Shown piece by piece: positions 52,433 through 64,000 of a stretch of 64,000 nt of DNA (position 1 is its first letter; each line of letters begins with the position of its first letter). A program made the translations under genes and the position numbers. This DNA comes from Labilithrix sp. (GTDB lineage Bacteria > Myxococcota_A > Polyangia > Polyangiales > Polyangiaceae). The notes below the pieces were generated by a model that ran no database searches, was not told the origin of the DNA, and was given only the letters and a program-made list of their open reading frames with translations. The stretch is from contig JAXLYU010000009.1 in NCBI GenBank assembly GCA_046351255.1, forward strand, positions 421,975 to 485,974, given 5' to 3'.

Positions 52433-54559
52433 TTGGCCGCCAAGATTCCCCTCGAACGCATTCGTAACATCGGCATTTCGGCTCACATCGACTCGGGCAA
52501 GACGACGCTCACCGAGCGCGTCCTGTTCTACACGGGCCGAATCCACAAGATCCATGAGGTCCGCGGCAAGGACGGCGTCGGCGCCAAGATGGACTCGATG
52601 GATCTCGAGCGCGAGAAGGGCATCACGATCCAGTCCGCGGCGACGTACTGCCTGTGGCCTGGCTCGCAGAACCAGATCGAGCCGATCAACATCAACATCA
52701 TCGACACGCCAGGCCACGTCGACTTCACGATCGAAGTCGAGCGCGCGCTCCGCGTCCTCGACGGCGCGGTCCTGATCCTCGACTCCGGCAAGGGCGTCCA
52801 GAGCCAGTCGATCACGGTCGACAAGCAGATGAAGCGGTATCACGTGCCGCGCATCGCCTTCGTCAACAAGATGGATAATCCCGGCGCCAACTACGAGAAG
52901 GGCGCCGACATGCTCGCGAGCTCGGTCACCTGGCGCGCGCCGCCGCGATCCAGCTGCCGATGGGCGGAGCATGAGTTCAAGGGCATCATCGACCCGATCC
53001 TCATGAAGGTCTTCATCGAGGGCAACGACGGGCGAGGTCATCAAGGAAGTCGAGATCCCGCCGAGCGCCAAGCGAGGTCGCCGAGGCCCGCCGCGCACAT
53101 CATCGAGAAGGTGGCCGACGTCGAGGACACCCTCGCCGAGAAGTTCCTCGCCGAGGAGCCCATCTCGATCGAGGAGATCCGCGCCGCCATCCGCCGCGCG
53201 ACCCTCTCGCTCAAGATGACGCCGGTCATGTGCGGCTCGGCCGTCAAGAACAAGGGCGTCCAGCTCCTGCTCGACGCGGTCTACTACTACCTCCCGAACC
53301 CGACGGAGGTCGTCAACGAGGCGCACGACCAGGACAACAACGAGGCGAAGGTCGTCGTCAAGAACGACCCCTCCGGCCCGTTCGTCGGCCTCGCGTTCAA
53401 GCTCCAGCAGGACAAGTACGGTCAGCTCACGTACTTCCGCCTCTACTCGGGCCGCATTGCTGCGGGCGACACCATCTTCAACACGTCGAACGAGAACCGT
53501 AAGGTCCGCGTCCCGCGAATGTTCCGCATGCACTCCGACGACCGCGAAGAGATTCAGGTCGCGGAGGCCGGTGACATCGTCGCCTTCTACGGCGTCGAGG
53601 CCTCGTCCGGCGAGACGTTCACGGACGGCAAGGTCAACTACACGCTGACCTCGATGCACGTCCCGGCCGCCGTCATCTCGCTCGCCGTCGCTCCGAAGGA
53701 CCGCGGCGCGGAGACGAACTTCTCGAAGGCGCTGAACCGCTTCACGAAGGAGGACCCCACCTTCCGCGTGCACCAGGATGAGGAGTCGCAGCAGACCATC
53801 ATCTCGGGCATGGGTGAGCTCCACCTCGACATCTACATGGAGCGCATGAAGCGCGAGTACAACTGCGAGGTCGTCGCCGGCAAGCCGCAGGTCGCGTACC
53901 GCGAGTCGATCTCGAAGAAGGCCGAGATCAACTACACCCACAAGAAGCAGACGGGTGGCTCGGGCCAGTACGCGAAGGTCATGGGCTACATCGAGCCGCT
54001 CCCGCCGGACGCGGTCGAGAGCTACGAGTTCGTGGACGACGTCGTCGGCGGCTCCATCCCGCGCGAGTTCATCTCGTCGTGTGACAAGGGCTTCAAGGAG
54101 GCGGTCAAGAAGGGCAACCTCATCGGCTTCCCCGTCGTCGGTATCCGCTGCTGCGTGAACGACGGCGCGAGCCACGCGGTCGACTCCTCCGAAATGGCCT
54201 TCAAGACGGCGGCCATGATGGGCTTCCGTGAGGCCTACGAGAAGGCGGGCGCGACGATCCTCGAGCCGATCATGAAGGTCGAGATCGACGCCCCGACCGA
54301 GTTCCAGGGCGCCGTCGTCGGCCAGGTCAATCAGCGCCGCGGCGTCATCCAGGAGACGATCGCGGGCGACACCGTGAACGTCATCGCCGAGGTCCCGCTG
54401 AACGCGATGTTCGGTTACTCGACCGACCTCCGCTCCGCCACGCAGGGCAAGGGCACCTTCACGATGGAATTCGCGAAGTACGCCGTCGTTCCGCGCCAGG
54501 AGCAGGACGAGATGATCAAGGCCTACAAGGCCAAGCTCGCCGCGGACGCGAAGAAGTAA
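52433..54559 (+). CDS. fusA: elongation factor G (second-type, spd/mitochondrial-EFG1-like)
   Basis: TTG start after a GGAGAA RBS. G1 'AHIDSGKTT' and a 'GKDGVGAKMDSM' insert typical of spd-type EF-G. It is not in an str operon context. Residues ~160-220 are garbled by compensating frameshifts (see findings). Confidence 0.85.
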   Translation: MAAKIPLERIRNIGISAHIDSGKTTLTERVLFYTGRIHKIHEVRGKDGVGAKMDSMDLEREKGITIQSAATYCLWPGSQNQIEPININIIDTPGHVDFTIEVERALRVLDGAVLILDSGKGVQSQSITVDKQMKRYHVPRIAFVNKMDNPGANYEKGADMLASSVTWRAPPRSSCRWAEHEFKGIIDPILMKVFIEGNDGRGHQGSRDPAERQARSPRPAAHIIEKVADVEDTLAEKFLAEEPISIEEIRAAIRRATLSLKMTPVMCGSAVKNKGVQLLLDAVYYYLPNPTEVVNEAHDQDNNEAKVVVKNDPSGPFVGLAFKLQQDKYGQLTYFRLYSGRIAAGDTIFNTSNENRKVRVPRMFRMHSDDREEIQVAEAGDIVAFYGVEASSGETFTDGKVNYTLTSMHVPAAVISLAVAPKDRGAETNFSKALNRFTKEDPTFRVHQDEESQQTIISGMGELHLDIYMERMKREYNCEVVAGKPQVAYRESISKKAEINYTHKKQTGGSGQYAKVMGYIEPLPPDAVESYEFVDDVVGGSIPREFISSCDKGFKEAVKKGNLIGFPVVGIRCCVNDGASHAVDSSEMAFKTAAMMGFREAYEKAGATILEPIMKVEIDAPTEFQGAVVGQVNQRRGVIQETIAGDTVNVIAEVPLNAMFGYSTDLRSATQGKGTFTMEFAKYAVVPRQEQDEMIKAYKAKLAADAKK

Positions 54560-54582
54560 GTCCTTCGCCGTCCAACCCCGGG

Positions 54583-54620
54583 AGCCCTCGACGCCGCACG
54601 GTGTCGGGGGCTTTCGTCGT
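54583..54620 (+). terminator. possible intrinsic terminator after fusA
   Basis: AGCCCTCGAC…GTCGGGGGCT stem followed by TTTCGTCGTC. The T-tract is weak. Confidence 0.25.
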
Positions 54621-54635
54621 CTAGACTGGCGGTCG

Positions 54636-56378
54636 ATGGCGCGCCTCGACCCTCACTCCTATGCGGATGACACCCAGCCTCGCACCCGTCACTTCGACTG
54701 GCGGGCGCGCGTGGACTTCGAGACGCGCACCCTCGACGCGGAGGTGACGCTCCGCTTCGAGCGCGCCGCGGGCGGCGGGACGCTCGACCTCGACACGCGC
54801 GGCCTCGACGTCCGGCGCGTGACGGCGCCAGACGGCTCTGCGCTCTCGTTCGTGCTGCATCCGGCGGAGCCCATCTTCGGGCAGCGGCTCGCGATCTCGG
54901 TCCCTGCGGGGACCGAGGCGCTGACGGTGAGCTATCGCACCTCGCCGGACGCCTCCGCGCTGCAATGGCTCGAACCCGCGCAGACGTACGGTCGCAAGCA
55001 CCCGTATGTGTTCTCGCAGTGCCAGGCGATCCACGCGCGAAGCATCCTGCCGTGTCAGGACACGCCGTCGATCCGGCAGACCTTCACCGCCTCCCTCGAG
55101 GTCCCGGCCTCGCTCCGCGCAGTGATGGCGGCCGCGCCGCTCGAGCGTGACGGCGCGACCTATCGCTTCGAGATGCCGCAGCCGATCCCGCCGTATCTCC
55201 TGGCCTTCGCGGTCGGCGATCTGGCCTCCAAGGACGTCTCGCCGCGCTCGCGCGTCTGGGCGGAGCCCGGAGAGCTCGAGGCCGCGGTGTGGGAGCTCGA
55301 GGTCGTCCCGGAGCATCTCCGCGTGGCGGAGTCGCTCTTCGGCCAGTACGACTGGGACCGCTTCGATCTCCTCGTCATGCCGCCCTCGTTCCCGTACGGC
55401 GGCATGGAGAACCCGCGCCTCACGTTCCTCACGCCCACGCTCCTCGCGGGCGATCGCAGCCTCGTCAACGTGGTGGCCCACGAGCTCGCGCACTCGTGGA
55501 CGGGCAACCTCGTGACCAACTCCACAGCGGAGCATTTTTGGCTGAACGAGGGCTTCACCGTCTTCGCGGAGCGTCGGATCCTCGCCGCGCTCGAGGGCGA
55601 GGACATGGCCGCGCTCCACGCCGCCATCGGCTTCCAGCGCCTGCAGAAGGCCTTCGAGCAGTTCGAGAAGCATCCCGAGCTCACCCGTCTCCGGACGCAC
55701 CTCGCGGGCATCGATCCCGACGACGCGTTCAGCGCCGTCCCCTACGAAAAGGGCTTCCTCTTCCTCAAGACGCTCGAGGCCGCGGCTGGCCAGGAGGCCT
55801 TCGACGACGTGATGCGGACCTGGCTCGGCGAGCATCGCTTCGGCGCCGCGACGACCGGCGACTTCCTCGCCCTCGTCGACCGCCTGCAGCCCGGCCTCCT
55901 CGCGAAGGTCGACGCCCCTGCGTGGATCGACGGCGCCGGCCTCCCCGCGAATCACTGGAAGCCGGCGTCGGCGAAGCTGACGGCGCTCGAGGCCGTGATC
56001 GGCCGCGCCCCGACGGACGACGAAGGCAAGGCCTGGAGCGCGACGGAGTGGCAGCTCTACCTCGAGGGCACGCCGCATCCGAGCCCGAAGGCGCTCTGCG
56101 AGGACCTGGAGGCGCGCTTCTCGCTGACCGCGTCGAAGAACATGGAGATCCTCGTGAGCTGGCTCGTCCTCGCGTGCGAGTCGGGCCACGCGGCGACCGT
56201 TCTGCCGCGCGTCGACGAGGTGCTGAGCCGCGTGGGCCGCACGAAGTACGTGAAGCCGCTCTTTGCGGCGCTCGCGAGGCGCCCCGAGACCGCCCCGCAC
56301 GCCCGCGAGCTCTTCGAGCGCCTCCGCGCGACCTACCATCCGATCACGCAGCAGGCCGTTCGCTCGCTCCTCAGGTAG
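54636..56378 (+). CDS. M1 family aminopeptidase (leukotriene A4 hydrolase-like)
   Basis: 'GGMEN' motif, 'HELAHSWTGN' (HExxH), and a downstream 'WLNEGFT' Glu. Confidence 0.85.
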   Translation: MARLDPHSYADDTQPRTRHFDWRARVDFETRTLDAEVTLRFERAAGGGTLDLDTRGLDVRRVTAPDGSALSFVLHPAEPIFGQRLAISVPAGTEALTVSYRTSPDASALQWLEPAQTYGRKHPYVFSQCQAIHARSILPCQDTPSIRQTFTASLEVPASLRAVMAAAPLERDGATYRFEMPQPIPPYLLAFAVGDLASKDVSPRSRVWAEPGELEAAVWELEVVPEHLRVAESLFGQYDWDRFDLLVMPPSFPYGGMENPRLTFLTPTLLAGDRSLVNVVAHELAHSWTGNLVTNSTAEHFWLNEGFTVFAERRILAALEGEDMAALHAAIGFQRLQKAFEQFEKHPELTRLRTHLAGIDPDDAFSAVPYEKGFLFLKTLEAAAGQEAFDDVMRTWLGEHRFGAATTGDFLALVDRLQPGLLAKVDAPAWIDGAGLPANHWKPASAKLTALEAVIGRAPTDDEGKAWSATEWQLYLEGTPHPSPKALCEDLEARFSLTASKNMEILVSWLVLACESGHAATVLPRVDEVLSRVGRTKYVKPLFAALARRPETAPHARELFERLRATYHPITQQAVRSLLR

Positions 56379-57240
56379 CCGTCGGGCGAAGCTCGGCCTC
56401 GCGGTCGGACCCGGTGGCCCAGAGCCGTTCCCCGTCCGCGTGGCTCAGCCCGTCGATCTCGAACTGCGTCCGGAGCAGCTCGAGGAGGAGCGCCGGCGAC
56501 TCGATGGTGGTCGTCATGGCCTGCCCGCTCGCCTCGCGAATCGTGAATTCGCGATCGAGGATCGTGGCGCGGCGCCCTTCCGGAAGCGCCTTCGCCACCA
56601 TGAAGCGGTCCTTGAAGTGCGAGCTCGGATGCGTGCTCGTATACCAACTTGCGACGACGCGATCGATGAACGGCATCTCCTCGCCGGTGAACTCGTAGAC
56701 GTCGTTCCAGGTCTCTCCGTACTTGATCTGGTGAAAGCGGCGGCCGCCTTCCTCGATGAGGCGGCGCGGCTCGTGGAGCGTCGGCTGCTCCTCCGCGCCG
56801 ACGGCGCCGAAGCGAAGCGGCGAGGTCAGCGACGCGGCGCCGACGCCGACGTCCGCGAGCCAGTCCTCGCCGTCGAGCCTCACGCGCAGGAAGGTGTGCG
56901 TTCGCGCGGGCGTGAAGTCCCGCGGATGGCGGAGCCGAACGCGCGCGCTGAGGAGCGTCGCCTCGAATCCCAGCTCGCGAAGCACCTCGAGAAAGAGCCC
57001 GTTCTGCTCGAAGCAGTATCCGCCGCGCTTCCGGCGGACGAGCTTGTCGAAGAGCGCCTCCGGCTCGAGCTCGATGGGCCTTCCGAGGAGCACGTCGATG
57101 TTCTCGAACGGGATCCGCCCGACGTGTGCCGGCATCAGCGCCCGGAGCGCTTCGAGCGTCGGCGCGCGCGGGCCGGTGTAACCGTAGCCGACGCGCTCGA
57201 AGTAATGGTCGAGCTTGCTCCCTGCGGGCGTCGACGACAT
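56371..57240 (-). CDS. arylamine N-acetyltransferase (NAT) family
   Basis: Catalytic Cys in 'RGGYCFEQN', at 289 aa. Confidence 0.75.
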   Translation of the reverse strand: MSSTPAGSKLDHYFERVGYGYTGPRAPTLEALRALMPAHVGRIPFENIDVLLGRPIELEPEALFDKLVRRKRGGYCFEQNGLFLEVLRELGFEATLLSARVRLRHPRDFTPARTHTFLRVRLDGEDWLADVGVGAASLTSPLRFGAVGAEEQPTLHEPRRLIEEGGRRFHQIKYGETWNDVYEFTGEEMPFIDRVVASWYTSTHPSSHFKDRFMVAKALPEGRRATILDREFTIREASGQAMTTTIESPALLLELLRTQFEIDGLSHADGERLWATGSDREAELRPTAT

Positions 57241-57288
57241 GTCCGCCCGAGCTTGCCACGACGCGGGGCCGCGCGCTTTCATTCTGGC

Positions 57289-57813
57289 ATGTCTTCGCGT
57301 GTGCTGCCCGACCGCGCGGTCATTCGCACGGCGCGCTGGGGCGATAAACCGTTCCTCGAGGCGCTCAGCGTCGAGGTCTTTTCGCGCTACACGAGGGAGC
57401 CGCTCCGCCTGCTCGAGCGTATGCGTGAGCACGGCACCACGCTCATCGCCGAGCACCCGCTGGCGGGCAAGCCGGTCCCGCTCGGCTATGTCGTCATCGA
57501 GGTCTCGGGCCGTCACGCGGCGACCCCCCACTTCCGCGAGCCGCGTCTGGCGCATCTCTCCGCGATCGCGGTGAAGCCCGAAGCGATGGGCTGCGGCCTC
57601 GGCCGTCAGCTCCTCGAAGCCGCGGAAGACGCCGCGCGCGAGCAGGGCGCGATCTCGATGTCCCTCCTCACGGCGAGCACCAACGTCATCGCCCAGTCGC
57701 TCTTTCGCAGCGCGGGCTATTCGCCGATCCTCCCGGTCGACGACGCCTACCGCAACGAGCAAGACGCGATCCGCATGCTGAAGTCGCTCACGCTGACGCC
57801 AGCGCGCGGCTGA
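57289..57813 (+). CDS. GNAT family N-acetyltransferase
   Basis: 'LSAIAVKPEAMGCGLGRQLLEAAE' is an acetyl-CoA-binding motif A-like segment. Only the last 175 codons of ORF 56263..57813 are coding. Confidence 0.65.
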   Translation: MSSRVLPDRAVIRTARWGDKPFLEALSVEVFSRYTREPLRLLERMREHGTTLIAEHPLAGKPVPLGYVVIEVSGRHAATPHFREPRLAHLSAIAVKPEAMGCGLGRQLLEAAEDAAREQGAISMSLLTASTNVIAQSLFRSAGYSPILPVDDAYRNEQDAIRMLKSLTLTPARG

Positions 57814-57819
57814 ATCACG

Positions 57820-58086
57820 CTCGGCGCTCGCCGCGGTTTCCGGCGCGAAGCCAGACATCTGTGCCCTTGCCGATCGAAGCACCTCAAGGTGCTCGAACGC
57901 GCCGGCCTGATTTCCCGCGGACGGGACGCCCAGACGCGTCCATGTCGTCTCGAGGGAGCTCGCCTCAAGGAGGCCACGCTCTGGATGGAGCGATGGCGCG
58001 CGCATTGGGACGAGAGCTTCGACCGCCTCGACGATCTACTGGTCGAGCTCAAAGCAAAGGAGAAATCTCGTGGTCATGACAAATGA
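57820..58086 (+). pseudogene. ArsR/SmtB-family regulator remnant lacking the N-terminal HTH
   Basis: 'SKHLKVLERAGLISRGRDAQ' is the ArsR recognition-helix/wing motif. The open frame begins immediately after the GNAT stop with no room for the HTH N-terminus, and the only in-frame start lies inside the motif. Confidence 0.5.
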
Positions 58087-58540
58087 GGTTACGGGCAAGC
58101 CAGATCTCCGCATGTCGCGCACGTTCGATGCGCCGCTCGACCTGGTATGGGAAGCGTGGAGCAATGCCGAATACCTCGCACGGTGGTTCACGCCGCGACC
58201 TGGAAAGTCGGAGGACGTCGTCGTCGAGCTACGCACCGGGGGAATCTTCCTCCTGACCATGCGCTTTCCGGTCGAGACCGGAATCGGCGCTCACACCATG
58301 CGCGCGAAGTTCGCCGAGGTCATCCTGCACGGACGCATCTCCTTCGACACGAAGGTCCACGGCCTCGATGTTCATACGACGATCGATTTCTCGGAAGCCG
58401 ACGGCAAGACGACGCTCGACGTTCTCCAGCAATACTCCGGCGACAACGACGCGACCCGTGGCGCGCAGGCCGGCTGGACCTCCACGCTCGACAACCTCGC
58501 GGACGTCGTGAGGTCGATGAAGGCGACGAAGGCGTCCTGA
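58070..58540 (+). CDS. SRPBCC (Aha1/AHSA1-like) domain protein
   Basis: 'SRTFDAPLDLVWEAWSNAEYLARWF' is typical of the Aha1-like SRPBCC family that commonly follows ArsR genes. Confidence 0.7.
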   Translation: MVMTNEVTGKPDLRMSRTFDAPLDLVWEAWSNAEYLARWFTPRPGKSEDVVVELRTGGIFLLTMRFPVETGIGAHTMRAKFAEVILHGRISFDTKVHGLDVHTTIDFSEADGKTTLDVLQQYSGDNDATRGAQAGWTSTLDNLADVVRSMKATKAS

Positions 58541-58573
58541 GCCCGAGCCTGAGCCCGAGCTCGACGGCGATCG

Positions 58574-58894
58574 CTAGACGCCCTCGAGCACGTCGAGGCC
58601 CTTGCCGCCGACTGGCGTGAAGCGCGTCCCGTCGGGGGCTCCCGCCAGGAGCGGCATGGTCTCTTTGATGAGATCGCGGACGCCAGGCATCGACAGCGAC
58701 GCGCCATGCGCGACCTCGTCGCGCCAGAGCTCCGTGATCCAGACGTCATCGGGGTCCGTGGGTGACGTGCTCACCACGTAGAGCAAACAGCCCGGCACGC
58801 CGCGCATCAGCTCCGCTGCGCGCAGCATCTGCTGCACGAGGGCGTCGCGCTTGCCAGGCATTGCCATCATCTTGCCGAACATGCCGAAGAGCAT
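58574..58894 (-). CDS. ABM (antibiotic biosynthesis monooxygenase)-fold protein
   Basis: 106 aa, with 'VWITELWRDEVAHGAS' typical of ABM/quinol-monooxygenase-like proteins. Confidence 0.5.
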   Translation of the reverse strand: MLFGMFGKMMAMPGKRDALVQQMLRAAELMRGVPGCLLYVVSTSPTDPDDVWITELWRDEVAHGASLSMPGVRDLIKETMPLLAGAPDGTRFTPVGGKGLDVLEGV

Positions 58895-58917
58895 GCCCGA
58901 CGTTCTATCATCTCGGG

Positions 58918-59409
58918 CTACTGCCGCGCGATGGTTGCGACGACGGTCGCGCGCCGTGCGTTCACGATCGCGAGGAAGCGTTGCGCCTCCGTGCCGACGA
59001 GCCCCACGAGATCCGAGCCGTGCGCATGCGTGACCCGTACCGCACGCGGTTGCTCCGGCAGCCCGTTGGCCGGCGAGGCGGAATGGATCGCGAGGTCCGT
59101 GATCGCCGCGTGTGGAATGGATACGCGCCGCCAGAGCCAGCGGAGATGAATGCCCTCCGCGTCGACCCAAACCTGCGTGGGAACCAGCGCAGCTGCGACC
59201 GCGACCGCGGAGACGGCGCAGACGAGCGCGCCGCCGAGCTGGATCATCAGCCCTTCGGCCGCGCTGACCGGCACGCCGTTCCGACCCATCTGCCGACCGG
59301 TGAGCGCGAAGGCGAAGCCGAGGAGGCACGGGATCCCCATGAACCAGGCGAACGTGCTCGGCGCGACGAGCGGCGACGAGGCGCGAAACGAGTCTCCTTC
59401 GCCCGTCAT
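58918..59409 (-). CDS. membrane protein, hypothetical
   Basis: Two TM helices at 163 aa. It lies immediately downstream of the sigma54 regulator gene. Confidence 0.45.
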   Translation of the reverse strand: MTGEGDSFRASSPLVAPSTFAWFMGIPCLLGFAFALTGRQMGRNGVPVSAAEGLMIQLGGALVCAVSAVAVAAALVPTQVWVDAEGIHLRWLWRRVSIPHAAITDLAIHSASPANGLPEQPRAVRVTHAHGSDLVGLVGTEAQRFLAIVNARRATVVATIARQ

Positions 59410-59426
59410 GTCGAACAGCCCACGCG

Positions 59427-60842
59427 CTACGCGCTCTCGGGCGGCTCGTCGGAGTCCGCGCGGCGCGTCTTCGAGGGGCGCATCCCGTAGTCCTTGAGGC
59501 GTTGATAGAGCGTGCTCCTCGGAATGCCGAGCCGGCGGGCGGCCGCCTCCACGCGGCCGTGCTCGGCCTCCAGCGCGTTCTGGATGTGCTCGCGTTCGAG
59601 CTCCGACAGCGTGCGGGTCGATGCGGCGGGCATGTTCGCCGAGACGGGCGTCTTCACGGCCGGGAGGCTCGTGAACGACGGCGAGTCGAATTTCAGGTCG
59701 GGCGCGCGCACGGCGTCACCGCTCTTCAGCAAGAGCGAGCGCTCGAGCACGTTCTTCAGCTCTCGCAGGTTGCCGGGCCAGTCGTGCGCGAGGAGGACCT
59801 CCCGTGCGTCGGCCCCGATCTGGACATCGGCGCTGGTCATGGACGCGAGCAGGTGCTCGGCGAGCGGAAGGATGTCTTCGCGCCGCTCGCGAAGGGAAGG
59901 GAGCGTGATGGAGATGGTGCTGACGCGATAATAGAGATCGGCGCGAAAGCGACCCCGGCCACAGGCGGCGAGCAGATCGTGGTGAGTGGCCGCGACGAGC
60001 CGCACGTCGACCGAGCGCTCTCGCACGTCACCCATCGGCCGGAAGCGCTTCTCCTCCAGCACCTTGAGGAGCTTCGGCTGGACCTGCAGGTCGATGTCGC
60101 CGATCTCGTCGAGGAAGAGCGTGCCTCCGTCGGCGGCGTCGAGGAGGCCGCGCTTCGTGGCGTGCGCGCCCGTGAACGCGCCGCGCTCGTGACCGAAGAG
60201 CTCCGTCTCCACGAACTCGCGGGTGAGCCCGGCGCAGTTGACCTCGACGAGGGGGCCACGCTTGCGTGCGCCGATCTCGTGAATGCGTCGCGCGAGGAGG
60301 CTCTTGCCGGTGCCCGTCTCGCCGAGGAGGAGGACGGTGCAGTCGGCGTCGCGGAGCTTCTCGATCTGCTCCTCGACCCGCAGCATCGCGGCGGAGCGCG
60401 GGACGAACGAGCGGCCGAACAGCTTGCGCTGAGGCCCGGTGCGTGAGCGTTCGCGCCGGGCGAGCGCGCTGCGTACGCCGTGCGCGAGCACCTGCATGTC
60501 GATCGGCTTGGTGAGGAAGTTCTCGGCGCCCTCCTTCACGGCGCGGACCGCGAGATCGATCGAGCCGTAGCCCGTCACGACGAAGACCGGCACCTGCGCG
60601 TCGATGGAGTGGATGCGCGCGAGCACGTCGAGGCCGTCGCCGTCCGGAAGGCGAAGATCGGTGATCACGACGTCGGGACGTGCGGTCGCAAATTGTCGCG
60701 CCGCGCTCTCACACGACTCCGCCTCTACGACGCGGAAGCCGAGTCGACGAAGCTGCGCGACGAAACCGAAGCGCACTGCCTCGTCATCGTCCACGACCAT
60801 CAACGCTGGGCCGTCACTCGCCTCGCGCTTCGTAGCCATCAT
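59427..60842 (-). CDS. sigma54-dependent two-component response regulator (NtrC family)
   Basis: REC domain (D in '[12 protein letters not shown]'), AAA+ motifs '[15 protein letters not shown]' and 'GAFTGA', and a C-terminal Fis-type HTH. Confidence 0.9.
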
Positions 60843-60869
60843 GAGGAACCGTCATGATAGGGAAACGTT

Positions 60870-61964
60870 TCACGAGCGAAAGGGTGCGTGATGCAGATCG
60901 TCGCGAGTCTCTCCGGACGGATCGACGGGAAGGACGATGGTGAAAGCCGTCCTCCCACCAGGGTTGGATTCGACCTCGAGGCGCGCGCCGTTCTCGTTGA
61001 CGATCTGCTGTGCAATGGATAGTCCAAGCCCCGTTCCGGATGGCTTCGTCGTGAAGAACGGATCGAAGATGCGACTCAGATTCGCTGCTGAAATTCCCGG
61101 TCCGTCGTCGATGACCTCGAAGCGGATAGTGGGATGAGCGCGATCGGACGTGCCGGGTGCGACGCCGGCCGTCGATGTGTTTTTGCGAACGCGCAAGAGT
61201 ACCCGCGACGGTGTGCCGCCCGTCGCGTCGAGCGCATTGTTGAGGAGGATGACGAGCGCCTGCGCGATCTGCCGATCGTCCACGTTCACGTCCGGCAGTC
61301 CCGCCTCCGCTTCCACGGGAATGTCCGTGTGCGCGCGGAGGCGAGCGCGCAGCTCCGAGAGCGCGGAGGCGGTGATGGCGGTGGGTCGTCGTGGACTTCG
61401 CTTCGGCGCGGCGGGGCGTCCAAACTGGAGGGACGTGCGCACGAGGCGCTCGATCCGCTCCACCATCTGCAGCATCAGCCCGACGTGGGGGAGCGAGATC
61501 CCCTCGTCGCGGAGCTCTTCGCAGAGCGATCGCAACGCTGCGACCGGATTGCGGACCTCGTGTGCGAAGCCGGCGACCATGGTGCCCATCGCGGCGAGCC
61601 GCTCGAAGCGCTGGCGCTCTGCATCGAAGCGCTCCTCGTCGGCGCGCCGACCGCGCGCCCGTCCGAGCTCGAGGAAGATCGCGAGCCTCCGCTCCAGCGC
61701 AGCCGCGCTCGTGATGCCCAGCACGAAGGTGTCGTTCGCGCGAAGGAGTGAGATGGTGGACTCGGGAATGGCGAGGTCCGAGATCAAGAGCAGCGGCACG
61801 TCGCCGAGGTGCGCACGAACGACCGAGAAATCCGCCACCGCCGCCGCGCGGAGGTCGAAGACCGCGGCCACGAACTCCACGTTTGGGATGGGGTCGCGTG
61901 GGCCCATGCGTGCGGTCGGAATCCCGACCGGCGTGATGGGAAGCTCACCGACCACCAGGATCAT
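60870..61964 (-). CDS. cytoplasmic sensor histidine kinase
   Basis: H-box 'FAHEVRNPVAAL', N-box 'LLNNALDA', G-boxes 'DDGPGI'/'GTGLGL'. There are no TM segments. ATGA overlap with the upstream GTPase stop. Confidence 0.85.
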   Translation of the reverse strand: MILVVGELPITPVGIPTARMGPRDPIPNVEFVAAVFDLRAAAVADFSVVRAHLGDVPLLLISDLAIPESTISLLRANDTFVLGITSAAALERRLAIFLELGRARGRRADEERFDAERQRFERLAAMGTMVAGFAHEVRNPVAALRSLCEELRDEGISLPHVGLMLQMVERIERLVRTSLQFGRPAAPKRSPRRPTAITASALSELRARLRAHTDIPVEAEAGLPDVNVDDRQIAQALVILLNNALDATGGTPSRVLLRVRKNTSTAGVAPGTSDRAHPTIRFEVIDDGPGISAANLSRIFDPFFTTKPSGTGLGLSIAQQIVNENGARLEVESNPGGRTAFTIVLPVDPSGETRDDLHHAPFRS

Positions 61965-63421
61965 GCGGGCCTCGCCTGCAGGAGCGCGCGACGCTCGTCC
62001 GACGTGAGCTTCCGCGCGAGCTCGAGCTCGAGGACGGCGTAGAACGCGGCCGGGTCCGGCACCGCCGCTACCGCGCGCGCGAGCCCGGCCTCGACCGCCG
62101 CCGCCGTCGGCGCCTCGAAGACGAGCTCGCCGAGATAGCGCGGTCGTCCCGACTGGAGCCCGAACGACGCGGGGCCCAGGTCCAGGGTGACGCCGTGGCG
62201 CAGCGCGACGGTGAGCGTCTCTGCGATCGCCCCCGCATATGCCGCGACCGAGGAGATGGGCGGCATGTCTGGATGGACGGTCCAGATCCAGCAAGTGCCC
62301 TCGTCGGTCTGCTGCGCGACGAGCACCGTCTCCGGGACCAGGAGCTCTCCGATCTGCGCGTACGCGCGCGCGGTCCGCACGAGCGCCTGCCGCGCCGCCT
62401 CCGCGTCGGCGAACGACATCCGCCGGGACGTGCGCACGACGTGCCCGATGGCGGCGTGACGCAGGACGCCGTCCGCCGCGAAGTCCGCAGGGCTCCGCGC
62501 CGGCAGGTCGAGCGCTCGCAGCACGGCGCGCCCGGTGTGGGCGGGCCAGATGAAGCCGGTGGGGACGGACGGGGAGGGCAGGTGAGGCGCGAGCGCGCGC
62601 ACGTGAACGGCAGAGACCGGGGCCGCGATTCGCTCGATCCGTCCGTGGATTTCCTGCGCCGCAGCGACCGCTGCGACCCGCAGCGTCTCGTCGGACTCGA
62701 CCGTCGTCTGCGCCTCCTCGAAGAGCAGCGCGGCCTGCGCCTCCTCGAGGAGCATCTCCGCCGCCCACTCTGGATCGAGGGTCTCCTGGCCGAGGCGCGC
62801 GAGCAGCTCGCCGGCGCTCTCCGCGCGGCGAACCGGGATGGGCGGCGGCGTGAGCTCCAGATCTCGGACCACGTTGCGGATGGATTGCACGAACGTATCG
62901 ACGACGCCGATCCCGTCGCTCGCGATCGCCTCCACCACCGTCGCGCCCTCCCGGCCGAGCGCCTCCGCGACGGCGCGCCCGTCCAGCGAGCCTCGGCGAT
63001 CCTGCTTGTTCGCTTGCAGCACGATGGGCAGCGGACGTCCGAGCTCCTTCGCGATCTCCTCATAGAGCTCGAGGCCGGCGCGTGCGCGCTCGATGCCCTC
63101 GGGATCGCTCTCGCAGACGAAGACGACCGCATCGGCGGTGGCGAGGAGGTGCCGGCGCCGCGGGCGAAGCGCCCCCTGACCCGGCACGCTGAGGACGTGC
63201 GACAGGAGCGGTATTCCGCGGGCGACCCCGGCATGAATCGGGAGCCAGTCGAAATACATCGTCCGCCCGCGGAGCTCGGCGGGAGTGACCACCTGCCGAT
63301 GGCGCTGCGCGGCAAAGAGGATGCATAGCTGCCGGAGATTCGTGGTCTTTCCGGCCATCGCCACGCCGTCGTAGACGACGCGCAACACGAGGCGTTGCTC
63401 TATGGGATCGAAGACCGGCAT
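61961..63421 (-). CDS. MglA-family small GTPase with ~295-aa C-terminal extension
   Basis: Colinear with MglA motifs: 'VVYDGVAMAGKTTNL' (P-loop), 'GRTMYFDWLP' (intrinsic Arg), 'SVPGQ' (catalytic Gln), 'VLQANKQD' (NKxD), 'ASDGIGVVDT'. Followed by an uncharacterized Ala/Leu-rich C-terminal domain. Confidence 0.8.
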   Translation of the reverse strand: MPVFDPIEQRLVLRVVYDGVAMAGKTTNLRQLCILFAAQRHRQVVTPAELRGRTMYFDWLPIHAGVARGIPLLSHVLSVPGQGALRPRRRHLLATADAVVFVCESDPEGIERARAGLELYEEIAKELGRPLPIVLQANKQDRRGSLDGRAVAEALGREGATVVEAIASDGIGVVDTFVQSIRNVVRDLELTPPPIPVRRAESAGELLARLGQETLDPEWAAEMLLEEAQAALLFEEAQTTVESDETLRVAAVAAAQEIHGRIERIAAPVSAVHVRALAPHLPSPSVPTGFIWPAHTGRAVLRALDLPARSPADFAADGVLRHAAIGHVVRTSRRMSFADAEAARQALVRTARAYAQIGELLVPETVLVAQQTDEGTCWIWTVHPDMPPISSVAAYAGAIAETLTVALRHGVTLDLGPASFGLQSGRPRYLGELVFEAPTAAAVEAGLARAVAAVPDPAAFYAVLELELARKLTSDERRALLQARPA

Positions 63422-63426
63422 TCTCC

Positions 63427-63897
63427 CTACTCGTTCCGAAGGCGCTCTCGCGCGCGGCGATTGAGGATCAGCGCTGGACCATGCTCTCCGGTCTCGCCGA
63501 CGACGATCGCGTTCCCGTGCCAGAAGGTGACCATCGACGATGCTCCTCGCTTCACGGCGAGGACCGCCGAAGGGTCGTTGAAGGTGGAGACGACGTCGAG
63601 CGCCGACGCCGCCCACTGGCCAATACGGAGGAGCCGCTTCGAATGCGATATTCGACTGCCGAATACCGCGATTGGCTCCGGAAAGGCGCATTCGCCGGTG
63701 CGGACGAAGGCGGCACCCCAGCCGCTGTCGAACGACGCCTCGAGCACCGGGCCCACCTCCGTGAGCACGGTGCGGTGTCGCTCGCCGCCCGCGTAGGCGA
63801 GGAGCTCCGCCGTCGTGAACGTGAACGTGGGGCTATATCCTTTCCCGGGGCGCGGAGACCACGTGGCGTAGGCCGGGGACGCGCACAGGCGGCTCAC
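63427..63897 (-). CDS. roadblock/LC7-like (MglB-like) protein
   Basis: 156 aa, 5 nt upstream of the MglA-like gene. The C-terminus 'SMVTFWHGNAIVVGETGEHGPALILNRRAR' resembles the MglB/roadblock beta-strand-helix end. Confidence 0.4.
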   Translation of the reverse strand: MSRLCASPAYATWSPRPGKGYSPTFTFTTAELLAYAGGERHRTVLTEVGPVLEASFDSGWGAAFVRTGECAFPEPIAVFGSRISHSKRLLRIGQWAASALDVVSTFNDPSAVLAVKRGASSMVTFWHGNAIVVGETGEHGPALILNRRARERLRNE

Positions 63898-64000
63898 GCT
63901 CTCGACCGTGTGCTGAAGGAGCGCGCTGCGAAGATCCTCCGCTCGGAGAACGCCGACTCGAATCAGATGCTCTCCGAGCGGGGTTCGCTCGGCCTTGCAG

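Follow-up and report, generated by a model that had tools for sequence, protein, structure and literature searches.

An MglA-type GTPase and Roadblock-type proteins encoded with a histidine kinase and a sigma54 activator in a conserved myxobacterial operon

Described G-protein and two-component systems

The GTPase domain encoded at the locus analyzed here is closest, in both sequence and fold, to that of the MglA/MglB systems of Myxococcus xanthus and Thermus thermophilus. Frz and RomR act on MglA, so that the GTPase lies downstream. Further, Makarova et al. reportedly described PATAN-MglB gene neighbourhoods in 2006. MglA-family GTPases and Roadblock proteins have also been linked to two-component and PATAN proteins (PMC4316618). 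In the actinobacterial conservon, an MglA-like GTPase is combined with a Roadblock protein and a kinase (PMC12236503), and the GTPase is posited to act downstream of the kinase-type component (PMC4316618). For Group 3 MglA systems, regulation of transcription was proposed by the authors (Wuichet and Sogaard-Andersen 2014; PMC4316618).

We analyzed a stretch of 64,000 nt of Labilithrix sp. DNA (the window). Four genes close to its end are real and form the distal end of a larger operon that is conserved in myxobacteria. This operon represents a previously uncharacterised variant among the known signalling systems of bacteria that combine a G-protein with a two-component system. The initial annotation was not aware of a characterised example of the architecture; this is correct for the variant, but the general idea has precedents (PMC4316618, PMC12236503).

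The GTPase has in common with MglA a P-loop, an intrinsic switch I Arg, S/T-x-PGQ instead of DxxGQ, and NKxD. As with MglA/MglB, a Roadblock-fold protein is encoded directly upstream and there are receiver-domain partners (cf. RomR). In contrast to MglA, the GTPase is 486 aa long and possesses a helical linker and a conserved C-terminal domain (CTD) of ~210 aa, and, unlike MglB, the adjacent Roadblock domain is fused to PATAN and missed by Pfam Robl_LC7. The cluster differs further from the MglA/MglB module in its four Roadblock-type domains, second GTPase-like protein, kinase and sigma54 activator.

The conservon (CvnA-D; mycobacterial Mfp) likewise unites kinase-type, Roadblock and MglA-family GTPase components in one unit, a 'bacterial G-protein system' (PMC4316618, PMC12236503). 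Its kinase is membrane-bound and lacks a cognate response regulator, whereas the kinase here is cytoplasmic and the cluster includes two receivers and a sigma54 activator. Further, the conservon includes a CvnC/DUF742 protein and a GTPase lacking the intrinsic Arg finger; we found no DUF742 in the present cluster, and its GTPase possesses Arg, Gln and the CTD. Group 3 systems are similar in combining an MglA homologue, one or two MglB homologues and a protein for which receiver similarity and DNA binding were predicted (PMC4316618). However, that partner is a single winged-helix protein rather than a kinase plus an NtrC-type AAA+ activator, and the descriptions include no PATAN proteins, CTD or sigma54 promoter (PMC4316618).

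PatA, PixG and PixE also combine REC with a PATAN domain carrying a helical alpha-clip insertion, the repeats of which resemble those in pilus and type II secretion ATPases (bioRxiv 10.1101/2021.06.11.447907). As in PatA-type and PATAN-MglB neighbourhoods, the PATAN genes here are associated with MglA and MglB homologues. Unlike PatA-type proteins, in which PATAN precedes REC, the order here is REC then PATAN, two PATAN proteins have a C-terminal Roadblock fusion, and a kinase and sigma54 activator belong to the cluster. The kinase (HisKA/HATPase_c) and activator (REC, AAA+ with GAFTGA, Fis-HTH) resemble NtrB/NtrC, and, as in autoregulated NtrB/NtrC systems, dyads are located 50-130 bp upstream of the -24/-12 promoter that very probably drives the activator's operon. 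In contrast to NtrB/NtrC, the other genes of the operon are neither metabolic nor structural but encode a G-protein switch. Every NCBIfam equivalog score was far under its cut-off, and therefore the pair is orthologous to no named system.

Genes of the operon

The unit, initially described as four genes, comprises at least seven co-oriented genes and one divergent gene, and most of the additional genes lie past the window end (64000). On contig L001, which is 99.9% identical (2 mismatches in 2084 bases shared with the window), the order is a divergent REC–PATAN–Roadblock regulator, the promoter and dyads, G2, RB1, RB2, PATAN–Roadblock, GTPase, kinase and activator. The features within the window are as follows.

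59427..60842, minus strand: NtrC-type sigma54 enhancer-binding response regulator, 471 aa; REC, AAA+ with GAFTGA, Fis-type HTH (Pfam)
60870..61964, minus strand: cytoplasmic histidine kinase, 364 aa; N-terminal domain of ~110 aa, HisKA (His135), HATPase_c (Pfam)
61961..61964, minus strand: ATGA overlap of GTPase stop and kinase start, translational coupling (read from the sequence)
61961..63421, minus strand: MglA-family GTPase gene with C-terminal extension, 486 aa (Pfam Arf, E 3e-6)
61964..62596, minus strand: CTD, family-specific alpha/beta domain, residues 276-486 (AF2)
62597..62836, minus strand: helical linker, residues ~196-275, including the conserved DPEWAAEMLLEEA helix (AF2, alignment)
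62837..63421, minus strand: GTPase domain, residues 1-195 (phmmer, Foldseek, conserved residues)
63176-63178, minus strand: GTPase Gln82 (in VPGQ)
63263-63265, minus strand: GTPase Arg53 (in GRTM)
63344-63367, minus strand: GTPase P-loop GVAMAGKT
63422..63426, minus strand: 5-nt spacer GGAGA, Shine-Dalgarno-like, from the PATAN–Roadblock stop to the GTPase ATG at 63421 (read from the sequence)
63427..64000, minus strand: 3' part of the PATAN–Roadblock fusion gene (residues 78-267 of 267), 5' end outside the window
63433..63774, minus strand: Roadblock/LC7-fold domain, residues ~153-266 of PATAN–Roadblock (predicted structure)
63910..63981, minus strand: MshEN-like motif PLGEHLIRVGVLRAEDLRSALLQH, 24 residues, within the helical PATAN insertion (NCBIfam c-di-GMP_motif)

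The tight coupling noted in the initial annotation was confirmed. The spacer follows the PATAN–Roadblock stop codon TAG (63427-63429), the kinase stop (60870) and activator ATG (60842) are 27 nt apart, and no terminator-like site was found on the minus strand between the window's coupled genes. The GTPase/kinase junction is an identical 4-nt overlap in the L002 gene calls and the L009 ORFs, and RB1/RB2 and RB2/PATAN–Roadblock each overlap by 4 nt.

The PATAN–Roadblock gene had been read as a 156-aa MglB-like ORF. Its frame contains no upstream stop before the window end at 64000, and therefore the GTG at 63897 was an arbitrary start. The full gene (L001, 3101-3904) encodes a 267-aa protein with an N-terminal PATAN/DUF4388 domain (E 1.6e-4, under the curated cut-off), which is 100% identical to a 267-aa protein of a Labilithrix sp. 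MAG (P0121). The Roadblock fold is visible only in the predicted structure, so that this part of the assignment held, but the protein is a PATAN fusion rather than MglB. Among the Pfam models suggested initially, HisKA/HATPase_c, Sigma54_activat and Arf gave matches, but Robl_LC7 matched no protein of the cluster. The match of the MshEN-like motif to its NCBIfam model was weak (E 0.073; 12.9 bits, cut-off 38), and the motif was kept across the family in an alignment of 39 homologues (266-323 aa).

The GTPase was covered at full length in at least 167 homologues, and an identical protein is encoded on an ENA contig. When its GTPase domain was compared with PDB sequences using phmmer, MglA scored 5e-22 and 2e-21 and Arf followed at 5e-6; the top 12 Foldseek hits were all MglA (best E 4e-13). 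NKQD is also present, Arg53 was invariant among 38 homologues and Gln82 was conserved in at least 90%. Sequence, fold and conserved motifs thus agree with the proposed MglA-family identity with an intrinsic Arg and a catalytic Gln. AF2 placed linker helices at residues 203-211, 217-243 and 245-266.

The C-terminal extension, initially described as being of unknown fold, is a conserved domain that was modelled confidently (pLDDT mostly >90) and resembles no known family, with no match in Pfam or among PDB sequences. Its motifs are VPTGFIWPAHTGR, ARQALVRxAR, WIWTV and FGxQxGxxRY. The CTD was found in 217 clusters (50% identity), always behind ~250-400 N-terminal residues, and all nine of the long members scanned possessed an Arf/MglA-like N-terminal domain. 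The CTD occurs only behind MglA-like domains. Its first half also occurs in the long GTPases from other phyla; W292, P293, G297, R298, R344 and W380 are invariant. We also considered the CTD as a Roadblock domain of the Rag/Ragulator kind; an hhalign comparison with the Roadblock families of the cluster was negative, and the top Foldseek hits included no Rag. By these two methods, there was no sign of common origin with eukaryotic Rag GTPases/Ragulator beyond shared folds.

RB1 and RB2, 122 aa each, are Roadblock-like proteins encoded upstream of the window. The RB1 profile had a single, co-linear match in the PDB, the Roadblock protein MglC (E 0.068), and by hhalign (99.8%) RB1 shares homology with the REC–PATAN C-terminus. 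These weak profile matches suggest that RB1 and RB2 are Roadblock proteins. The adjacent gene had been taken for the Roadblock partner of the GTPase; instead, RB1, encoded two genes further upstream, is the Roadblock-type companion of the GTPase family across phyla, with 60-70% identity where the GTPase shows only 31-35%. G2 is a degenerate MglA-like paralogue with a coiled coil, and its P-loop was lost in this lineage. The divergent regulator (Response_reg 3e-20, DUF4388 5e-19) retains its phospho-acceptor.

As initially proposed, the last two genes encode a soluble histidine kinase (HisKA 2.7e-8, HATPase_c 2.1e-21) and an NtrC-type activator (Response_reg 6.8e-27, Sigma54_activat 9.6e-62, HTH_8 2.9e-14). 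The activator matched NCBIfam ntrC (7e-108) under the equivalog cut-off; its GAFTGA and acidic pocket were read from the sequence. Phospho-acceptor and catalytic motifs are complete in both proteins. We found no transmembrane segment and no Pfam-recognised sensor domain in this kinase. Residues 26-354 are co-linear with the L040 kinase, the N-terminus of which is PAS_4, and the L006 and L009 orthologues carry PAS domains; we class the kinase here as PAS-type.

Conservation of the linkage and the promoter

The complete order, with REC–PATAN on the opposite strand, was present in ~20 species-level genomes of Labilithrix/Polyangiaceae (identity 42-73% for the GTPase, 52-76% for the kinase and 53-78% for the activator). 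Of 24 loci in this group, 20 have the kinase after the GTPase, and in 19 of 23 the activator adjoins it, so that the proposed link is kept in relatives. However, the activator is convergent in 10 of 19 loci and is therefore not co-transcribed with the operon there; the description as a "hard-wired" operon applies to only part of the clade. The kinase is missing from one orthologous locus (L005), and a paralogous locus of Labilithrix luteola has no kinase and an activator without a receiver. Further, the association of kinase and activator with the cluster recurs among differently arranged genes in Acidobacteriota and distant Myxococcota: one Polyangiales genome, one Thermoanaerobaculia genome and further loci have a PAS kinase and a REC–sigma54 activator beside rearranged PATAN, Roadblock and MglA-like genes. 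Steroidobacteraceae and some Acidobacteriota possess a minimal conserved core of Roadblock paralogues and the long GTPase only; neither a kinase nor an activator lies within 10 kb, and the two-component part is therefore an add-on.

A sigma54 -24/-12 element precedes the operon in all 17 of the orthologous Labilithrix/Polyangiaceae loci that we examined. TGG[T/A/C]A[C/T]-N5-TTGC is invariant among them (chance expectation, ~0.09 per 64 kb). It is oriented into the operon, 13-69 nt ahead of the G2 start, and the DNA around it is otherwise unconserved. In 14 of the 17 loci, exact GTCC-N7-GGAC dyads (background, 0.099 per kb), often two or three of them, are present at most 130 nt upstream of the -24 element, and the remaining three loci have near-matches. 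The operon is very probably driven by this sigma54 promoter. Both elements together suggest autoregulation by the encoded activator, to which we assign the dyads as putative sites.

Proposed signalling and its direction

Gene content, motifs, folds, linkage, and the conserved promoter and dyads lead us to favour, with some reserve, an integrated module, in which the operon, with the four genes as its distal part, joins an MglA-type G-protein switch to its own two-component pair. The kinase would autophosphorylate at His135 and pass phosphate to two receivers, one in the activator and one in REC–PATAN–Roadblock. The phosphorylated activator would bind the dyads and open the sigma54 promoter, giving positive autoregulation; further targets are possible. 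By homology to MglB, Roadblock-domain proteins may control the nucleotide state by placing the GTPase's own Arg53 and Gln82 in position; the candidates are RB1/RB2, PATAN–Roadblock and the phospho-regulated REC–PATAN–Roadblock protein. More speculatively, the GTP-bound GTPase could use its CTD to act on the kinase, to which it is coupled in translation, or on another effector, and this would close a loop between G-protein state and sigma54 transcription.

A route from kinase to GTPase is suggested by the phospho-acceptor of the divergent regulator, the PAS domains of kinase orthologues, and the Frz/RomR and conservon precedents. The phosphorylatable REC–PATAN–Roadblock protein argues that this direction is at least as likely as the reverse.

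The initial proposal, that the GTPase and a Roadblock GAP are the input, is tentative and less likely; in such a wiring, the nucleotide state would switch the kinase via the CTD, and then the activator, with transcription as output. The translational coupling of GTPase and kinase through an ATGA, present here as well as in L002 and L009, the conserved linkage, and the absence of a transmembrane segment or Pfam-recognised sensor from this kinase are consistent with it. Further, in the paralogous locus of L. luteola, an activator without a receiver accompanies PATAN, Roadblock and GTPase genes; such an activator would need protein-protein control. However, orthologous kinases have PAS domains of their own, the second intact receiver is fused to PATAN and Roadblock, most simply indicating a route from kinase to GTPase, and the known precedents place the GTPase downstream.

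We consider it doubtful that the locus works like MglA/MglB/RomR as a switch for polarity or motility, its GTPase, Roadblock and PATAN proteins acting on a machine such as type IV pili, with kinase and activator only timing production or providing one input. The nearest solved relatives are MglA, MglB and MglC, the PATAN insertion carries the MshEN-like motif, and the sigma54 promoter directly precedes the module itself. Yet no pilus or gliding gene adjoined the cluster in the loci examined, MglA lacks the CTD, and the family extends to Steroidobacteraceae and Acidobacteriota, in which, to our knowledge, MglA-type polarity control is not known. In favour of such a switch, PATAN genes are known beside mglA and mglB homologues (PMC4316618), and in cyanobacterial regulators, PATAN domains bind the pilus motor components PilB1 and PilC (bioRxiv 10.1101/2021.06.11.447907).

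Kinases and sigma54 activators are abundant in myxobacterial genomes, so that chance proximity is not rare, and the activator varies in orientation and the kinase is sometimes absent; nevertheless, an independent two-component system neighbouring the GTPase/Roadblock/PATAN cluster by descent only is very improbable, because the association outlasts rearrangement and recurs in paralogous families and another phylum, the GTPase and kinase genes overlap, and a conserved sigma54 promoter with dyads precedes the activator-encoding operon.

Gene organisation around the GTPase

Within the window, where the G+C content of the region is approximately 69%, the minus-strand module consists of three complete genes and one cut gene. 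Start codons were fixed from homologues and from the gene junctions, because a mechanical ORF list is unreliable at this G+C content. Long spurious extensions and antisense ORFs inflated the list for 59400-64000; one example was a 632-aa, GTG-started version of the kinase (60870-62768, minus strand) that ran across the 3' half of the GTPase gene.

Complete genes of the module in the window
59427-60842, minus strand: activator gene, NtrC-type sigma54 response regulator of 471 aa
60870-61964, minus strand: kinase gene, 364 aa
61961-63421, minus strand: GTPase gene, 486 aa

The initial annotation had described a four-gene operon with two tight junctions, and both were read correctly: 5 nt (GGAGA) lie between the upstream stop codon and the ATG of the GTPase, and the GTPase and kinase genes overlap at ATGA. 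The kinase and activator genes are spaced by 27 nt, and no terminator-like sites were found on the minus strand between genes of the module. We place the end of the operon at the activator, because the genes downstream of it (52433-59400) look unrelated to the module. They encode ABM-like and AHSA1-like proteins, a GNAT protein, an arylamine N-acetyltransferase, a zinc peptidase assigned to the M1 type by its HELAH motif, and an EF-G paralogue with a TTG start, and most are syntenic with an activated-sludge contig that is 73% identical (L002). A 163-aa ORF (58918-59409, minus strand) located 17 nt past the activator stop was considered as an eighth gene of the operon. It had no homologue among 84 loci, overlaps its ABM-type neighbour when the frame of that gene is extended, and is probably not a gene. 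An anti-phage defence system was also considered and rejected, as PADLOC returned coiled-coil noise only.

The frame of the 156-aa ORF upstream of the GTPase, initially taken for a stand-alone MglB-like gene, contains no stop codon from 63897 to the end of the window. A GTPase identical to that of the window is encoded on L001, an ENA metagenome contig that differs from the window by 2 mismatches in 2084 shared bases and reaches 3.3 kb further upstream, and we used this contig as a proxy for the region upstream of the window end. The 156-aa ORF proved to be a fragment of a 267-aa PATAN–Roadblock fusion gene that runs off the window; a protein of 267 aa with 100% identity is recorded under the name of a Labilithrix sp. 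MAG. Thus, whereas MglB is a stand-alone protein of approximately 130-180 aa encoded next to mglA, the protein encoded next to this GTPase is a 267-aa fusion. The full operon order is G2 (a second MglA-like protein), RB1 and RB2 (two Roadblock-like proteins), PATAN–Roadblock, GTPase, kinase and activator, with a REC–PATAN–Roadblock gene transcribed divergently.

The N-terminal half of the 267-aa protein is a putative PATAN (DUF4388) domain into which helices are inserted. The DUF4388 match (PF14332; E = 1.6e-4) scored 22.1 bits, below the cut-off of 25, and some homologues carry a precomputed PF14332 match. An AlphaFold2 model built from a 39-sequence alignment (pLDDT 93.3, pTM 0.89) placed the insertion, of four helices, at residues 53-115. 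In the C-terminal half, the predicted order of helix, two strands, helix, three strands and helix is that of Roadblock. The fold claimed for the MglB-like ORF is therefore supported by the predicted structure, but membership in Pfam Robl_LC7 (PF03259) is not: the 156-aa piece had no such match at E ≤ 1, and DUF4388 was the only Pfam match of the 267-aa protein. The helical insertion also contains a 24-residue motif, PLGEHLIRVGVLRAEDLRSALLQH (63910-63981, minus strand), which resembles the c-di-GMP-binding MshEN repeat. The NCBIfam match was very weak (E = 0.073). Because the family of 267-aa proteins conserves this motif, the module might take c-di-GMP as an input.

Genes of the operon located on L001, beyond the window end
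L001 1644-2351: G2, 235 aa, first gene of the operon
L001 2371-2739: RB1, 122 aa, with homologues in loci L036-L081

RB1 and RB2 (also 122 aa) each overlap their downstream neighbour by 4 nt on L001. The sole match of RB1 among PDB sequences was the Roadblock protein MglC, co-linear and weak (E = 0.068), and no Robl_LC7 match was found by Pfam in RB1 members. RB2 likewise aligned co-linearly and weakly with RB1 (hhalign E = 0.04). RB1 was the most conserved component, with 60-70% identity between Myxococcota, Acidobacteriota and Steroidobacteraceae compared with 31-35% for the GTPase, and its gene directly precedes that of the GTPase even in the latter two groups. Conservation so far above that of the GTPase partner is unusual for Roadblock proteins. 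The near-invariant core of RB1 reads ASAYNSELVKQK...LED..LTL.DQIH.

The N-terminus of G2 is MglA-like (MAYLNVRERRIEAKIAYVGP...) and the protein is without the Arg/Gln pair. At most orthologous loci (orthologues in L008, L009, L011, L017, L018, L024, L025 and L030), G2 retains the P-loop, as GxxxxGK[AT]T, together with NKxD, and a coiled coil comes after them. Judging from the loss of the P-loop in the lineage of the window (L001, L002 and L006), G2 is likely a pseudo-GTPase there. The divergently transcribed REC–PATAN protein (478 aa, on L001) is a clear PATAN member (Pfam Response_reg, 3e-20; DUF4388, 5.4e-19), and hhalign identified its C-terminus as a homologue of RB1 (probability 99.8%).

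The GTPase, its C-terminal domain and the two-component pair

Sequence, fold and motif evidence agreed with the earlier assignment of the GTPase to the MglA family with an intrinsic arginine and a catalytic glutamine. In a phmmer comparison of the G domain (residues 1-195) with PDB sequences, MglA matched at 5e-22 and 2e-21 and Arf followed at 5e-6; the best 12 Foldseek matches of the GTPase model were all MglA. Across 38 homologues, the P-loop GVAMAGKT and NKQD are conserved and fit the MglA pattern of GxxxxGK[ST] with NKxD. Arg53 (GRT), the intrinsic arginine finger in switch I, is invariant in the same set, and Gln82 (SVPGQ) is at least 90% conserved, T/S-x-PGQ replacing DxxGQ as in the MglA type of M. 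xanthus. Both residues aligned with their MglA counterparts in the phmmer alignment. However, MglA is a single domain of approximately 195 aa and this GTPase has 486 aa. The additional part, conserved in at least 167 GTPase homologues, comprises a helical linker (approximately residues 196-275, with the motif DPEWAAEMLLEEA) and a C-terminal domain (CTD, residues 276-486), predicted as an alpha/beta domain with pLDDT mostly above 90.

The CTD profile had no meaningful match among PDB sequences, nor did 22 CTD members in Pfam, and Foldseek searches of the full-length model against PDB and viral structures returned GTPase-domain matches only, which swamped the CTD. When 1.84 billion representatives were searched exhaustively with phmmer, the CTD was detected in 217 clusters, in all of which it starts approximately 250-400 residues into the protein, and an Arf/MglA-like domain was present at the N-terminus of all nine long members scanned. 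Thus, across these 217 clusters, with the N-terminus scanned in nine members, the CTD occurs only after MglA-like G domains. Its first half, in which Trp292, Pro293, Gly297, Arg298, Arg344 and Trp380 are invariant, is common to shorter "long MglA-like" proteins of Acidobacteriota, Steroidobacteraceae, Kofleriaceae and Myxococcaceae. We regard the CTD as a candidate module for effector or regulatory functions; conceptually, it resembles COR, the domain that comes after the GTPase in Roc proteins.

Two identities were considered for the CTD. A Roadblock domain, as in Rag GTPases, was not supported: hhalign gave no match to the RB1, RB2, PATAN–Roadblock or REC–PATAN C-terminal families, and no Rag GTPase was among the top 50 Foldseek PDB matches of the full-length model. 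By eye the domain appeared kinase-like (strand hairpins, helices and an "HG..DL.P..FG" stretch); this view was dropped, because no tool supported it and the residue that would be the catalytic Asp is not a conserved one. A paralogous subfamily of even longer GTPases (approximately 600-680 aa) carries an insertion before the CTD (L045, L048, L060, L061 and L064). At these loci, activator, kinase, REC/PATAN-like and PATAN–Roadblock-like genes lie upstream of the GTPase on the same strand.

The identities initially given to the other two genes, a histidine kinase and an NtrC-type sigma54 activator, were borne out. The kinase matched HisKA (2.7e-8; His135) and HATPase_c (2.1e-21) in Pfam and has the H-box histidine and the N and G boxes of the HisKA type (FAHEVRNP, DDGPGI and GTGLGL). 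Its sequence contains no hydrophobic stretch indicating a transmembrane segment. No Pfam domain matched the N-terminal approximately 110 aa. The activator matched Response_reg, Sigma54_activat, AAA_lid_14 and HTH_8, and its translation contains a Walker A motif and a GAFTGA loop. Its REC domain has an acidic pocket, and the AAA+ domain, which bears GAFTGA, is followed at the C-terminus by a Fis-type HTH; this is the arrangement of the NtrC family. The activator is similar to NtrC, AtoC and ZraR, with scores far below every NCBIfam equivalog cut-off.

Conservation and candidate promoter of the operon

A scan of 185,579 species-representative genomes yielded 79 distinct loci, which were compared with the proteins of the cluster by tblastn; three further loci were covered by gene calls with Pfam annotation. 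Full-length GTPase orthologues (42-73% identity) were found in 24 distinct Labilithrix/Polyangiaceae loci. The kinase follows the GTPase in 20 of these, and the activator (53-78% identical) adjoins in 19 of the 23 that could be assessed, on the same strand in nine and convergent in ten. The synteny expected from the initial annotation thus held for kinase and activator adjacency, but co-orientation of the activator failed in 10 of 19 loci. At one locus (L005), the kinase is absent and the activator is kept.

The module is conserved in approximately 20 species-level Labilithrix/Polyangiaceae genomes, and other Myxococcota as well as Acidobacteriota have rearranged relatives of it. In two MAGs, one from Polyangiales (L040) and one from Thermoanaerobaculia (L067), PATAN, Roadblock and MglA-like genes are again accompanied by a PAS kinase and a REC–sigma54 activator, in different orders, and tblastn suggests the same association in several other loci. 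That the genes are neighbours by pure coincidence is unlikely, as linkage that survives rearrangement and crosses phylum boundaries argues for function rather than an inherited neighbourhood. The Steroidobacteraceae loci contain Roadblock paralogues and the GTPase only, which argues that the two-component part is an accessory layer.

Candidate promoter elements upstream of the operon
L001 1548-1562: dyad GTCCCGATTCGGGAC, starting 68 nt upstream of the -24/-12 element
L001 1616-1630: sigma54 -24/-12 element TGGTACATCCATTGC, 13 nt before the G2 start

The -24/-12 element lies approximately 2.3 kb past position 64000, where the window ends. All 17 orthologous loci have the pattern TGG[T/A/C]A[C/T]-N5-TTGC at the equivalent place and oriented toward the operon, against a chance expectation of 0.09 per 64 kb; it was absent from the 64-kb window. 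The surrounding DNA is otherwise unconserved, only TGG and TTGC being invariant in the alignment. Further, one to three exact GTCC-N7-GGAC dyads lie within 130 nt upstream of the element in 14 of the 17 loci, with near-matches in the other three. The background of this dyad is 0.099 per kb, and within the window it occurred at chance level, with no enrichment. As judged from these patterns, the putative -24/-12 element and its upstream dyads have the standard layout of an activator-dependent sigma54 promoter. In the simplest reading, the operon's own activator would bind the dyads, resulting in positive autoregulation.

Wiring of the module and relation to known systems

To our knowledge, bacterial Ras-like GTPases are understood in a few cases only, namely MglA (polarity), SofG and the conservons, and little is understood of how they act on gene expression. 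A 2014 catalogue lists MglA-family GTPases associated with MglB homologues, with PATAN proteins and with two-component proteins, and it includes one group proposed as a transcription regulator (PMC4316618). An experimentally studied kinase/Roadblock/GTPase unit is the conservon, CvnABCD (PMC12236503), and the module falls outside the actinobacterial conservons. The conservon has a CvnA-type membrane sensor kinase, a CvnC/DUF742 protein and a GTPase without an arginine finger, whereas the kinase of the module has no transmembrane stretch, Pfam matched no DUF742 in its proteins, and its GTPase keeps Arg53.

Our literature search found no paper, as absence of evidence only, on a system that has all of these features: an MglA-type GTPase that keeps Arg and Gln and ends in a family-specific CTD; four domains of Roadblock type, of which two are PATAN fusions; another GTPase-like protein; an NtrC-type sigma54 activator alongside a cytoplasmic kinase of PAS type; and a conserved sigma54 promoter with dyads. 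The module offers a defined and testable case, with an MglA-type switch encoded alongside Roadblock/PATAN regulators, a kinase, two receivers and a sigma54 activator. A candidate promoter is available as well, as are candidate sites for binding of the activator.

The motifs, the folds and the linkage all speak for a single module that joins a G-protein switch to a two-component pair. We favour a branched design, in which one kinase would feed both the activator, giving expression feedback, and the REC–PATAN–Roadblock protein, giving control of the GTPase; feedback from the CTD onto the kinase would also be possible. This design is favoured because orthologous kinases carry PAS domains, because a second intact receiver resides on a PATAN–Roadblock protein, and because there are precedents. 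The wiring proposed in the initial annotation, with the GTPase as input to the kinase, would fit the overlap of the two genes and the lack of a Pfam-recognised sensor domain in the kinase of this genome. However, the N-terminus of this kinase aligns with PAS_4-bearing homologues, and the receiver fused to PATAN and Roadblock would be a natural route from kinase to GTPase. Such a direction parallels the Frz/RomR route, which acts toward MglA, and also the view of the GTPase as the output of the conservon (PMC4316618).

An output in motility or polarity is plausible by analogy, since PATAN domains bind pilus motors in cyanobacteria (bioRxiv 10.1101/2021.06.11.447907), but the gene neighbourhood gives it no support. 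We think it improbable that the module is a scaffolded G-protein machine of Rag/Ragulator-like composition. Two MglA-type GTPase proteins, one of them a pseudo-GTPase here, would be held by Roadblock pairs (RB1/RB2 and the two PATAN–Roadblock proteins, one phospho-switched), and the nucleotide state, read via a GTPase-specific CTD of new fold, would directly gate the kinase and a self-amplifying sigma54 circuit. If true, this would be an undescribed prokaryotic G-protein-to-gene-expression pathway.

A paralogous locus of L. luteola DSM 27648 (L004/L027; CP012333.1, 133-155 kb) encodes RB1 and a long GTPase and has no kinase. On the other strand it carries small ORFs, a PATAN protein and, 5 kb away, a receiver-less sigma54 activator (360 aa). 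A receiver-less activator at a locus with no kinase hints that such activators may be controlled directly by proteins of the module.
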